The notes beneath the pieces were generated by a model. The model saw only the letters and a program-made list of their open reading frames with translations, did no database searches and had not been told where the DNA came from. This document shows, piece by piece, positions 372 through 62,700 of a stretch of 64,000 nucleotides of DNA. The DNA lies in the NCBI GenBank assembly GCA_963693365.1, contig CAVNZM010000016.1, positions 6,741,029-6,805,028 on the forward strand, given 5' to 3'. The translations under genes were made by a program, and so were the position numbers. Position 1 is the first letter of the stretch. Every line of letters starts with the position of its first letter. The stretch comes from Amoebidium appalachense. Its lineage: Eukaryota; Protista; Ichthyosporea.

Positions 372-3300
372 ACACCACCGGCCAAGTCAACAATGGGGTG
401 GACAAGGTGGTATGAGATCTCCCCCTCTCCCCCCCCCCCCCCCCCCCCCCCCCCCCCCCCCCCCCCCCCCCCGGGGGCTCTGCTTATTATGCAAACTCTA
501 TGTATGGTTGGCACTCTGCACCGTGTTATTCGTTGTTCATGTGTATTTCGTACTTTATTATGCATTCAACCCCCCCCCCCCTCCCGTCTTGCCCTCAATC
601 CCGTCTTCCGATCTCGTGGGGTTTTGTTTTGGATGGTTCTGCATTGTTTGGAGGGTGCTTTAGGCGAGAGGGTTTGTCTCAACACAGCTTCTCGTCTTAG
701 TGCTGTATAGTTTTTTTAGGCCACGTTCTGGCTGATTTGTTTGTTTCTGTCTTTCCTTCCATCTTTCCATTTTTCATTTCCTCTTTCTCATTTCTTTCTG
801 CCTTTCTTTGCTTCGTGAGTCCCCCCCCCCCCCCCCCCCCCCCCTTTTCCTTTTTTTCTTTCTTTCTTTCTTTCTTTCTTCGTCTTTTTCTTCTTCTTCT
901 TCTTTTTTTTTGTGCTTGACAACCCCCCTCCCCTCCCCCCGGGCTTCCACCCCACGGTTCAACCCATTTGCTATACCATTTAACCAAATAAGGCTATTTG
1001 CAGGTGGGCGGCAGCCAATCAGTGACGAGGTATACCAGCGCACGTGCTTTGTTGGGGGCCTGAGGCCGCCAGTCAACGAGGATGTGCTGCATGGCCACTT
1101 CCAGGCCATAGGGCCCATCCACGAGATCAGACTCATACCAAATAAGGGGTAGGCACTACTCTTGATTTTAATTTTTATGTTCTTTCTTATAATCATTTTG
1201 ATTTTTAAAATCTGTTGCGACATCCAGTCTTTTCATCCCTGATTCCCCTCTCAACATGCTACTTCTTCATCCTGAAGACCCCGTGCAACATGCAGCCCCC
1301 CCCTCCCCAACCCCCCCCCCCCCCCCCCACACACACACACACCCCCATGGGGTGGGGAGGGGGTGTGGGGGAGGGGGAGGGAGGGGGGGGGGGGGGGGGG
1401 GGCAGACCATCCTCTCCATCCTTCTCCATAGAAGTTGTGACACCTCCACCAGCTTCTTTTTTTGTGTGTGTAGGCTTGTGGGGATGGTGGGTGGGTGGGT
1501 GGGTGGGTGGGTGGGTGGGTGTGGGTGTGGGGGGGGGGGGGGGGGATATATGGTTGTATAATGGAGGTAGAGAAAATTGTGGTGTATGAACCTCAAGGCA
1601 TATTCGAAACCATTGAGGGCATCTGTTTGGCTTCCGGTGTGCTTGGTCCCATGGCTTTGGATGTTCTGGATGCCGACAACAAGTCCCCCCCCCTCCCCCC
1701 CCTCTCCCTCGGGCTCCCACTCCGAATCCTGCCCTTACCTTATTTTTGAGATTTTTAAGGCACCCATTCCCCACACACACGCGCGCGCGCGCGCACACAC
1801 ACACACACACACACACGTGAATGACATGTGCGCCTCTCAGGATGGGCACTGTTTATGATGCATATGCTTTGTGTATGCTCTGCAAAATGTGTTGTGAAGT
1901 ACGTCGTGAATGTGTAGTTCGTACTCTGTAACACACTCTAACACCCCCCCCCCATGCACATACGAGATCACACACTCACACAGGCAGACACATTCACACG
2001 AAACCCCACACACACACACACACACTCACACACTCACACACACGTACACGTACACAGCATTGCGTTTATCACGTTTGGAGACCCCTCATGTGTGGATTCA
2101 GCCATCCGCACGCTCAACAACGAACCTCTCACCCTCCTGAACGGCCAACCCTGCCACATACGTGTGAGCCATGCAAAGAGGCCAAACAGCCAACACCACC
2201 AGCCGAGACAGCCCTCGTCTACGTGGACAGACCAGGGTATGTGTGTGTGTGTGTGTGGGGGGGGGGGGGGGGGGGGGGGGGGGGGGGGGGGGGCTTCTGG
2301 TGGTCTGTTGCTTGTTGTGTGGGTATTCGACTCCCCCCCCCCCCCCCCCTTTCCCCACCTTCCCCCTCCCTCTCCCCCTTTCTTCGTGATGTGTGTGTGT
2401 ATGATGGTGTGGTGTTTGGGTGGGGTTGAGGTTGGGGGGGGGACGGAGATGGGTGTCGCGAATGCCATCCCTAATGTTTTTCTCTGAGACCACTTACCTA
2501 ATCCCCCTCCCCCCCCCCCCCCCCCCCCCCCCACCCACCCCACCACCACCACCACCACCACCACCACCACCACCCAAAAAAAAAAAAAAAAAAAAAAAAG
2601 ATACACACACACACACACACACACACACACACACACACCAACACGAGCATGTACATGCACACGTGACACACAATACACCATGCGTGCCTCACACGAGTGT
2701 GTACACACACGCGCGCGCGCGCGCACACACACACACACACACACACACACACACACACAAACACCGCACATGCACGCACACGCGCACACACACACACACA
2801 TACAACACACGCACACACACACACACACACACACAAACACCGTACATGCACGCACACGCGCGCGCACACACACACACACACACACACACACACACACACA
2901 CTGTCACATACAGATTCGAATCCACCCGAGAACAACCAACCACCGGTAAGTCCCTCTCTCCCTCACTCCCCTCCCAGAAAAAAGGCTAATAATTTCAGTT
3001 TGGTCATTCTGAACTCATGTTTTCTTTTTTCCTTCCCACAATCATGATTGTAGTGTGTGCACATAAATGCTAAAATTCTGTGTGCCTGTGCATCATGTGT
3101 TGCTGCGTGCGGATGTTGGTGTGTTAGGATTGGCGTCAGGGGCAGGTGGGTGGTCTGCCCCGGGGGGGGGGGGGGGGGGGGGGGGGGGGGGGGGGGGGCT
3201 TGCATACGAATCGTACATTGCCTACCGACAGCCACACGCACACAAGGACGATGGGGCTAGATAAATAAGCAGGCGATTGATTAACCTTCCCCCCCCCCCC

Positions 3301-3487
3301 CCCCCCCCCCACAACCCCCAACCCGACCCGTCTGCACACACACACACACACATGTACGCACGTGCGCATACACACGCACACACGCACGCACACACGCACA
3401 CAGCCACACCGCGGGTCGGAGGATAAGTTGCAGCTGGAGAGGAGGGAGTCACGTGATCGCGAGATGGTCACCTACAGCGACCTCTGA
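372..3487 (+). CDS. RRM-domain RNA-binding protein, 3' part (5' end lies upstream of the window); exons 372-409, 1004-1148, 2058-2236, 2914-2945, 3404-3487
   Basis: GT-AG exons join in frame. RNP2-like TCFVGGL and RNP1-like KGIAFITF are split across an intron, followed by the IRVSHAK beta strand; the protein ends REMVTYSDL* (TGA 3485-3487). Exon 372-409 is the least certain. Confidence 0.8.
473..569 (+). mobile_element. 5'-truncated copy of the poly(C) element
   Basis: GGGCTCTGCTTATTATGC...TTCGTACTTT..ATGCATTCAA between two poly-C tracts. Confidence 0.75.
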
Positions 3488-59743: not shown

Positions 59744-62700
59744 ATGGTTGCCAGCACAGACTCCCGCGTCATGGCCAAGGAGGGTTTAGTGGTGGACCCC
59801 CCCCACGGGGTGGGGGCCGTGGTCTCATCCATCCTCACATACTGTCTCTTCAGGTACGGAGGGGGGAGGGGGGGTGGTTGGAAAGGGGGAGGTTAAGGGG
59901 AAGGGGGGAAGGAAGGGGGGGGGGGGGGGGGGGGCAAGGGAGGGGTAGGATAGCAGAGTGTGGAGGAGGTGGCTGGGGAGTGAATGGTGTTGGGGAGGAG
60001 GAAGTGTGGGGGAGGAGGAAGTGTGATGTTGGGAGCATGCCAAGAATGAATGGGCTCAAGAGCATTGGTCAACGTGTGTGTGTGCAACAGAACGAAAGAG
60101 CCTACACGAAGGGGGGAGGACGGGGGGAAGGGGGGGGGGGGGGGGGGGGGGGGGGGGGGGGGAGGGAGGGAGGCGGGGAGAAGGAGGGACGGGACGCACA
60201 GGGGGAAGGGGGAAGAGGGGAGGGGTAGGGGTGCTTTGGAGGGGCTAGCAGGTGCTGAGTCAAGCATGGGGGCTGGTGTGTATGGTGGGATGGACAGGTG
60301 TCAAGTCGGGTCGGCCTCGGCCTGGGGAACAGAGGGATAGAGAAGCATAATATTGGAGGGGAAAGGGGGGGGGGGGGGGGGGGGGGGAAGGGATGAGGCG
60401 ACGAGGCAGCCTGGGGTGCGGGGCGGGGGGACGGGAAAGGGGGGGGAGGGGGGGGGGGGGGGGGGGGGATGTACAGGGGGACGGTTTTTTTCCTGAGGGG
60501 GGGAGTGGGGGGAGAGTGTTTGGGGGGAGGGGGGAGGGGGGGCAGGTGGGAGTGGGGGGAGAGTGTTTGGGGGGGAGGGGGGAGGGGGGGCAGGTGGGAG
60601 TGGGGGGGCATGGCGGAAAAGAGGGGGAAGGACACAATTGGTTGGACGAATAAAGGGGATTGGAGAGAAGGGAAGAGGTCGAAGTAGAAGAGTCTTGATA
60701 TCAAACTGAACTTGGGTGTGCCCAGGAGTCTCGGAGAGGTGGGGTGTATGTGTGTGTGTGTGTGGGGGGGGGGGGGGGGGGGAGGGGAGGGGGGGGGGAG
60801 AGAGGTGAGGTGGGGTGGGGTGGGGGTGGGGGGGACGGAGGGGAAGTACATGGGTGTTATTTCGGCACGTGTGTGTGTGTATGATTGGGTTGTAAGTAGG
60901 CTCAGGTGAGCTTTGGGGTGTGTGTGTTTTGTGGGAGGGGTGGGGGGCTGATGAAGGGAGCCTCTATGTGAACGGGAGGGTAGTGGGGGGGGGGGGAGGG
61001 GGGGGGGGGGGGGGGGGGGGGAGGGGGGGGGAGGGGGATGATGATAGTATAAGAGTGTGTGAGTACTGATGTTCACATGGCCAACGGTGGGGGGACAGGT
61101 TGTTAATCCATTTGTTGATCTGGCAGGGGGGGGGAGGGGGGGGAGGAGGGGGAGGGGGGGAAGAGGATGGATCGGGGGGCACTTGGGCAGGGAGAGTGGA
61201 GGAAGGAGGCATATGTCGACCTTGTTCTTTTGTATGTTCCTCTCCTTTGCTCTTCTTTCTTCCTTTTTGTTTATTTATTTATTTGTTTATTATTTATTTA
61301 TGATTTATTTCCCTCTGCAGTATGACGATGATGTACTCCAACAAGTTTGTGCTGTCATCATATCAGTTCAAGTACCCCTGGGCCCTGGTTACCGTGCAGG
61401 TGTGTGCACGTGCCCACACGTGCTTATACACATGCACACACCTGCTTATACACATGCACACACCTGCTTATACACATGCACACACCTGCTTATACACGTG
61501 CACACACCTGCTTATACTTGTGCACACACCTGCCTATACTTGTGCACACACCTGCTTATACTTGTGCACACACCTGCTTATACTTGTGCACACACCTGCT
61601 TATACTTGTGCACACACCTGCTTATACTTGTGCACACACCTGCTTATACACGTGCACACACCTGCTTATACACGTGCACACACGTGCTTAAAATTTTGCA
61701 CATATATGCCCATACAAGTGCACACACATGCTTGTACATGTGCACACATGTGGCACCCATTTCATTGAACCATAATCAGGAAATGCTATAGCACATACAA
61801 GTGCTGACCGTGGGAGCCTACCTGGACTCCACACACACACGCACACACACACACACACACACACACACACACACACACACACACACACACACACACACAC
61901 ACACACACACACACACACACACACACACACACACACACACAGTCAGAGAGACGTGCACACGCACACACACGGAAGTATTCGAAGCACGGAACGATTGTTC
62001 ATTCCCAGATGTTGACAGATCTATAAAGAAGAATATGGTTATGCAAGCGTACACGTGTACTGGTGTTCATTTCCCACATTTCTGAGCCCCCCCCCCCCCC
62101 CCCCCCGCCCCAAAAGCAATGGGTGATACCATATTTCCGGCTGACATCCGGGGGCATAGCTTTCCGTTCGAAGACGTTAAAGTTCAGCCCTAGTAAGCGT
62201 GTTACTACCTGCGGCGTGGGTCAAATATCATATTTTCCCCTCTGATTGCGAATTCTGCGGCCTTCGGGACTTAATCTTTTCAGCTGGTGTAGTATGTTAG
62301 CCAGGGAAGTATCGACTTAGGTAGCGACGCGGGAGCTTCCTAGAAGCCCCGTCTCGTGAGTTCCTATCTATATTTTTCTTGCTTCTGTTTACTGCTGCAA
62401 CTTTAACCCCCGGCCTTTCCCACTGCCCTTGCCTGCATAAGCAACCCTGCTCGTCTCTGATCAAGACGGGTGACCTACCCATGTTCAAGTGAAACAGTAT
62501 CTGAGTTGGGTTTCGTTAACGAGGGGAATAGGTCGAAACTCGGGTACTGTGGATGACGTGGGCACCCCCTGAGCATGGGCTCTGCTTATTATGCATACTC
62601 TTTATGTATGGCTTGCATTCTGCATCGTGTTATCCGTTTGTCCTTGTGTACTTCGTACTTTTTGACGCATTCAAACCCCCCCCCCCCCCCCCCCGCCCCG

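Follow-up and report, generated by a model that had tools for sequence, protein, structure and literature searches.

A hallmark of the Chlamys and Naiad groups of Penelope-like elements (PLEs) is a PLE-clade reverse transcriptase with an N-terminal GIY-YIG endonuclease. In the available text of their descriptions, Chlamys elements target (C)n sites, are 5'-truncated, form partial tandems and do without a canonical hammerhead (PMC8557442), and their de novo insertions are all intronic, with a median of 128 bp (PMC9977147); that text gives no orientation of the copies relative to host genes. Here we describe a repeat from a 64-kb stretch of Amoebidium appalachense DNA (contig CAVNZM010000016.1, positions 6,741,029 to 6,805,028; hereafter, the window), which our analysis suggests is likely a non-autonomous, Penelope/Chlamys-like retroelement, and of which all 18 intronic copies, distributed over five genes, lie sense to the host gene. 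As far as the accessible text of the two papers goes, the element resembles Chlamys PLEs and their non-autonomous partners (Chlamys-9/Chlamys-N4_cRei; PMC8557442, PMC9977147) in its (C)n sites, its short, 5'-truncated copies and their intronic location, and also in its partial tandems, inverted 5' pieces and lack of a canonical hammerhead; unlike Chlamys, which is described there from a green alga, a spike moss and a slime mould, it resides in an ichthyosporean. Our claim is that the element works like Chlamys PLEs, not that it is one; its copies hold no open reading frame (ORF), and a search of 14 stop-to-stop frames (13-18 kb) for a reverse transcriptase was negative.

Two subfamilies are young, A at 563 bp and B at about 445 bp; their 5' parts are unrelated and the last 285 nt are common to both at 71% identity. 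Older copies are 54-93% identical to subfamily A. The two long A copies, 43505 and 62113, are 99% identical over the 3' 281 columns. Nearly all copies have one fixed end (3') and another (5') cut at varied points, most of them consisting of the final 95-150 nt and lacking the core. Frequent 5' truncation of this kind, a trait of the Chlamys/Naiad elements, is evident both from the profile matches and from the summed depth of DNA contigs along copy A, which drops through 672k, 419k, 160k and 51k from the kept end, against a depth of 16-24 for unique contigs; the sum is a gradient, not a copy number, and places the family only roughly in the order of 10^4 copies. The element proper ends in 2-4 A, and most copies stop directly before a C-run, in keeping with the insertion into (C)n or (CA)n known for Chlamys/Naiad. 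At copy 62113 the same 24 bp (C19-G-C4) flank both sides, and because this duplication contains the interrupting G, the C-run is a duplicated target and not a tail. Target duplications of 11-30 bp made of the C-run were found in seven of the eight copies checked, most being pure C and of uncertain length. Further, a partial tandem (pseudo-LTR) of subfamily B, whose junction (41128-40529) recurs in RNA contigs and in seven DNA contigs of a divergent isolate (X5), and an 11-nt 5' inversion that opens copy 4175, which has a target duplication of about 30 bp, are single cases each of features that are not exclusive to PLEs. Cumulatively, the C-run duplications, ragged 5' ends, partial tandem and inversion are marks of target-primed reverse transcription. 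Copies 43505 and 62113 begin at an identical base, and RNA and DNA contigs reach 200-275 nt further 5' into sequence unlike that of the intron hosting copy 43505, so that a longer parent element is likely. The sequencing-run contigs (X5, X6 and X15) give no strand, ends or level, X6 and X15 being treated as RNA on the strength of their exon junctions. The fixed end, the depth gradient and five one-sided changes in predicted helices of the shared core, all of them to G-U on this strand, together support that end as the 3' end of the RNA, with the RNA strand as taken in the preliminary description of this DNA.

The copies were counted with an nhmmer profile, built from copies stripped of their C-runs and applied to both strands of the window, with a second round after the first model; all counts given below refer to this window. 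The search returned 28 rows, 21 of which were taken as copies (18 intronic and three non-intronic). The seven rows discarded comprised 38950 (sense, E 0.058), four further sense rows with E-values of 1.9-2.8, and two rows scoring about as the null did (a reversed window, best -0.5 bits): 10341, antisense in TOM40, at -0.4 bits, and a row from outside the genes at -0.2 bits. Since 14 of the 18 intronic copies were seeds of the second model, these match the profile by construction; several were recovered unseeded in the first round. The intronic copies occupy 12 of the 42 introns or part-introns of five genes, with two or three copies apiece in five of the 12, often with a C-run in common, and the sixth gene of the window, a DEAD-box helicase gene with six introns, holds none. 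All 18 are sense to the host, as the preliminary description had stated, and the orientation of the element switches with the minus-strand multi-KH gene and then back. The plus-strand copies listed there were all found, one of them, 23232, being weak (E 0.071); on the minus strand, 43650 and 43815 proved to be the two ends of a single copy. The placement of copies 474 and 59386 is in presumed introns only, and the carbohydrate-binding-module (CBM) label of one host gene goes back to a weak CBM53 match.

The availability of targets does not account for this orientation. Introns of the host genes contain 80 C-runs of at least 8 nt on the sense strand vs. 94 G-runs, the latter being the targets of antisense copies, and antisense targets equal or outnumber sense targets at all four run-length cut-offs, as they do for runs followed by (AC)n; this bears out the view in the preliminary description that run supply is no obvious explanation. 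The boundary of RRM intron 1 (1149-2057) was revised after these counts had been made. In element-free introns the sense strand carries 74 G-runs vs. 41 C-runs, and more than 150 nt from either intron end the numbers balance (37 vs. 36), deep-intronic copies there being sense as well. The sense orientation extends from young copies, with a sibling at 97-100% identity, to old ones that match subfamily A at 54-70%. Taking one event per occupied intron, the chance of an all-sense outcome is 0.46^12 = 9e-5, or 0.003 from each occupied intron's own run counts, and about 0.02-0.03 if independence is granted to the five genes alone. The antisense share has a 95% upper bound of 22% by introns and 45% by genes. 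The sense pattern is real, its magnitude loosely bounded.

Clustered copies are not independent because each insertion doubles a same-strand C-run, and this feedback raises the possibility, beyond those of the preliminary description, that there is no sense rule: agreement within a gene would arise from duplicated same-strand C-runs together with purging of inverted pairs, and the five genes would merely coincide. The introns with several copies around one C-run, a per-gene probability that is only about 0.02-0.03 for a pattern spotted post hoc, and a scarcity of close inverted pairs of short interspersed elements (SINEs) in dog, as given in the available part of that study (10.1101/2020.10.27.358119), are all consistent with it. 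However, copies of different introns stand kilobases apart and are often 55-75% alike, whereas the dog effect described there acts within ~100 bp, and the per-intron probabilities of 9e-5 to 0.003 argue against coincidence. We regard this explanation as improbable.

Of the mechanisms offered for the bias in the preliminary description, transcription-coupled insertion and purging of antisense copies still lead. We tentatively favour the former, at somewhat less than an even chance: transcription would pick the strand of insertion, the primer being a G-run on the transcribed strand of the gene. Insertion of the non-autonomous element would start by target-primed reverse transcription. The left edge of the C-run is where the duplication starts, which would put the first nick at the 3' end of the opposite-strand G-run, a placement that relies on the standard geometry of this reaction. 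The nicked G-rich 3' end may then prime cDNA synthesis and, by the same geometry, the primer strand of a sense copy would be the template strand of the host gene. Two candidate steps could restrict priming to that strand: non-template G-runs may be unusable during transcription, held in an R-loop or G-quadruplex, or else template-strand G-runs may be nicked where the polymerase stalls. Non-template G-runs are as common in the window as template ones, yet none is used by an intronic copy. The element RNA might acquire its C-rich 3' end through read-through of a parent copy within the host pre-mRNA, and a putative autonomous partner would supply the enzyme. Expression from host pre-mRNA, which the preliminary description had also put forward, would thus explain the source of the RNA, though not the strand of new insertions. 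The proposed pairing of a G-rich primer, the 3' end of the DNA, with the C-rich end of an RNA resembles what the accessible text reports for the endonuclease-less PLEs Athena and Coprina (PMC8557442); unlike those, which use telomeric overhangs and carry hammerheads, the element sits at internal G-runs with 11-30 bp duplications. With a little less assurance, we can envisage a family of tens of thousands of copies that primes almost only on transcribed-strand G-runs of active genes. Comparably tentative is the loop that would follow, in which copies land sense in introns, present an AG-free 3' end before the C-run and are transcribed by the host, so that introns are both source and target.

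Intronic Alu copies offer a comparison for the second mechanism; Alu has a 7SL-derived head, a poly(A) tail and T/A target sites. The premise in the preliminary description that intronic retroelements are unbiased or antisense-biased holds broadly, as for SINEs and long interspersed elements in the part of the dog study available (10.1101/2020.10.27.358119), and fails for human Alu, which is sense-biased 20-200 bp from exons according to the accessible text (PMC3088655). That bias, an intronic sense excess where the antisense strand bears acceptors, is a precedent for strand-neutral insertion followed by purging, although it is partial and restricted to that interval. Applied to the present element, antisense copies would be purged from short introns for their cryptic acceptors, donors and poly(A) signals, or for breaking donor-near G-runs. 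Over the final 90 nt of 18 copies, of which 15 are intronic and three are not, all being homologous and so not independent, AG occurs 21 times on the sense strand vs. 134 on the antisense, whereas host introns are balanced (1016 vs. 1106). The best antisense acceptors score 7.8 (A) and 8.2 (B) vs. a median of 5.6 for true acceptors and sense bests of 3.7-4.6, with matrices built from only 38 sites, and the antisense strand outscores the sense for splice sites in most copies. G-runs also lie closer to the donor than C-runs (medians of 233 vs. 564 nt).

These splice-signal counts weigh against transcription-coupled insertion, and other points do as well. In a plain transcription bubble it is the non-template strand that lies open, which would favour antisense copies, so that an extra step is needed; insertion and selection are not separated, since the data contain no de novo insertions; the sample is only five genes in one 64-kb window; and the partner reverse transcriptase was not found in the window. 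Moreover, copies 47718 and 48111, which sit between a short RNA that may be read from either strand (47329-47596) and the likely end of a minus-strand gene at ~48482, are antisense to read-through of that gene, 255-764 nt off. Two points weaken the case for the RNA strand. The five one-sided changes in the shared core, all G-U on the sense strand, came from helices picked on that strand, and a strand-neutral recount gave five G-U vs. one A-C; and single-sequence folding favours the sense strand in A (z -2.0 vs. -0.7) and not in B (-1.9 vs. -2.5). Against purging, in turn, the bias is complete, not partial, and takes in young, short and deep-intronic copies. Reversed, the short copies (many of 95-150 bp) carry ~8 AG per 100 nt vs. 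~5.3 in the host intron background, about 1.5-fold, and their antisense acceptors, at 2.5-6.8, are ordinary. We consider this AG excess too small to remove every antisense copy. Because young, short and deep copies are equally one-sided and antisense AG so little raised, we think that a choice of strand at insertion, by transcription or by replication, is more probable than later purging, which we hold to be unlikely, if still a serious contender.

Replication, which the preliminary description had not considered, could set the strand if a fork stalled or was nicked at a G-run on one template strand, and if forks ran along with transcription from origins at promoters. The orientation of the element shifts only at the KH promoter (~46.5 kb) and at the convergent ends of the DEAD and KH genes, and the two intergenic copies to the right of the KH promoter, which together with copy 4175 make up the three non-intronic copies likewise new to this analysis, are plus, matching a rightward fork. 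According to the accessible part of a recent preprint, mouse L1 and SINEs are oriented to forks (10.64898/2026.06.23.733924), and there, as proposed for the element, the strand is set at insertion by target-primed reverse transcription. The mammalian bias is, however, head-on and partial, and antisense-leaning in genes; that of the element, which is sense and for which a G-run primer is proposed, would be co-directional and near complete within genes of only 5-11 kb. We deem fork control rather unlikely, somewhat less so than the absence of any sense rule.

The copies might instead be functional, intron-hosted RNAs, akin to small nucleolar RNAs (snoRNAs) and kept only in sense, an option that the preliminary description had left standing. 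A structured core with three predicted pairs altered on both sides and the occurrence of element sequence in RNA contigs are compatible with such a role; a helix comparison of four sequences from two lineages is too small to test covariation. However, no Rfam family reaches its gathering score, most copies are without the core and are sense nonetheless, the RNA contigs show neither strand nor ends, and the ragged 5' ends, target duplications and a D-box-like word not kept in old copies all fit poorly; we therefore judge this option very improbable. As regards C/D or H/ACA snoRNAs, the best match (sR14) scored 9.9 bits vs. 38, and the C- and D-like words are 14 nt apart.

Other classes were tried and rejected. 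The Hammerhead_1 model, sought as the mark of retrozymes and canonical PLEs, scored 14.2 bits vs. a gathering score of 34 (E 3.6), with the stem II-GAAA half only, and was not found in B; readings as HDV-like, twister, hammerhead or C/D RNA, judged by Rfam and by eye, fitted in no case. The accessible text on non-LTR retrozymes describes elements that are, like ours, short, non-coding, linked to PLEs and arranged in tandem units, and that differ in their type I hammerheads and their depletion in introns; it does not mention orientation (10.64898/2026.07.22.740005). For a SINE derived from tRNA, 7SL or 5S RNA, ARAGORN found no genes and Rfam no match in A or B, with the proviso that the copies in the window may not reach the true 5' end of A; the sharing of only the 3' ~285 nt between A and B fits a stringent SINE with a LINE-derived tail, for which the window offers no partner. 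Introners do not apply either, as the copies lie at least 59 nt inside ordinary GT-AG introns and are not whole introns. Exact-motif scans gave no hits in viral contigs or in prokaryote genomes, and three metagenome matches were one locus with the 21-22 nt motif alone and no surrounding element, which we ascribe to chance. Mimicry of a branch point plus C-run by the 3' end of the element is weak, four of 25 branch-point-like words in 38 introns being followed by a C-rich stretch.

Table 1. Element copies, structured core and host genes in the window; positions count from the first letter of the window.
Feature	Position	Strand	Basis
5'-truncated copy, presumed RRM intron, upstream exon beyond window	474..569	+	profile match
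Old 5'-truncated copy, RRM intron 1	1817..1943	+	profile match, both rounds
Subfamily B copy beyond recognised introns, 3' of RRM gene's AATAAA (3987)	4175..4603	+	profile match
Three truncated copies clustered in TOM40 intron 1 (7262-7368, 7420-7573, 7714-7939)	7262..7939	+	profile match
Truncated copy, TOM40 intron 3	9333..9467	+	profile match
Two truncated copies, TOM40 intron 5 (11191-11272, 11308-11402)	11191..11402	+	profile match
Two decayed copies, CBM-gene intron (starts 23102, 23232; second weak)	23102..23333	+	profile match
Decayed copy, KH intron	37633..37692	-	profile match, E 7.8e-4
Subfamily B partial tandem, KH intron: 3' fragment 41128-40982, C7, long unit ~40973-40529	40529..41128	-	profile match; junction in contigs
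Internal fragment, KH intron, without C-run on 3' side	41831..41870	-	profile match, E 1.9e-6
Subfamily A copy (43505), 565 bp, KH intron, 59 nt from acceptor	42941..43505	-	profile match; RNA junction spans intron
Decayed copy, KH intron	43676..43793	-	profile match, E 3.8e-4
Two old non-intronic copies (47718-47892, 48111-48227)	47718..48227	+	profile match
Old copy 5' of transporter start codon (59744), presumed 5'-UTR intron	59386..59491	+	profile match
Subfamily A copy, 563 bp, transporter intron 61400-63086 (bridged by P0121)	62113..62675	+	profile match
Structured core common to A and B, nested helices, conserved word GGTCGAAACT	62436..62594	+	predicted fold
Host RRM gene, 3' part	1004..3489	+	Pfam, exon mapping
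Host TOM40 (Porin_3) gene	5864..13047	+	Pfam, exon mapping
Host carbohydrate-binding-module gene	17989..24732	+	weak CBM53 match
Host multi-KH gene	34780..45920	-	Pfam; RNA contigs
Host TPT/EamA-family transporter, 5' part	59744..63814	+	transcript-derived protein

The window is intron-rich eukaryotic DNA in which six genes were mapped exon by exon, RRM, TOM40, the CBM-domain gene, the DEAD helicase and the TPT/EamA transporter on the plus strand and the multi-KH gene on the minus strand; exons were checked one by one, not as spliced coding sequences, and some boundaries may be off by a few bases. Strands are backed by Pfam for the RRM, TOM40, DEAD and KH genes and weakly, through CBM53, for the CBM gene; the transcript proteins P0001 and P0121 connect exons of the DEAD and transporter genes, and KH exon junctions in RNA contigs span the introns that hold the longest copies. 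By sequence comparison the host is an ichthyosporean, a DEAD-box exon matching a EukProt transcript protein at 100% identity and an Ichthyophonus gene model at 71%, with the remaining matches much weaker. The introns of all six genes are polar: G makes up 36% of the first 80 nt, which contain (GT)n and G-runs, and C makes up 32% of the last 80 nt, where C-runs and (CA)n occur. Their ends are nearly self-complementary in composition and could pair end to end; AC/GT introns of fish pair in this way. The end of a KH exon is duplicated (35178-35240 and 35340-35402).

Near the non-intronic copies 47718 and 48111, an intronless 532-aa ORF on the minus strand (49215-50813) has no Pfam match and is covered in its 3' part, down to ~48482, by RNA contigs that end near a minus-strand AATAAA at 48506. 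The intergenic RNA contig at 47329-47596 (268 nt, depth 67 in X15) has a plus-strand AATAAA at 47561 and short ORFs only; the stretch 47597-48481 lies outside all RNA contigs, which does not mean that it is silent. Elsewhere in the window lie a TRIM-like miniature LTR element (56240-57496), whose two LTR-like repeats (56240-56735 and 57041-57496) have inverted TG...CA ends and enclose 305 bp of non-coding sequence, with G5 at both flanks; another family of dispersed repeats, at least 81 bp long (16974-17054 and 36292-36372); a 107-bp tandem duplication between G-runs (13983-14217); and a decayed 5.8S rRNA-like fragment (54285-54348; 23.5 bits, E 0.055, under the gathering score of 42).

In the literature searched, largely abstracts and open papers, neither this family nor an almost exclusive sense bias of a (C)n-targeting element was found described, and the accessible text of the Amoebidium genome paper and its supplement, figures aside (PMC11244446), likewise yielded neither. 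Where intronic retroelements are biased in orientation, they are usually antisense, which is read as the result of selection; if selection explains the sense bias of the present element, it would be an extreme version of the Alu case. The element would also place Penelope-like behaviour with (C)n targeting in a close relative of animals. If transcription-coupled insertion is true, the near absence of antisense copies despite balanced targets would mean that a retroelement can read, as it inserts, which strand state a transcribed gene is in, and the family would constitute a high-copy natural reporter for the effects of G-quadruplexes, R-loops or forks on target-primed reverse transcription.

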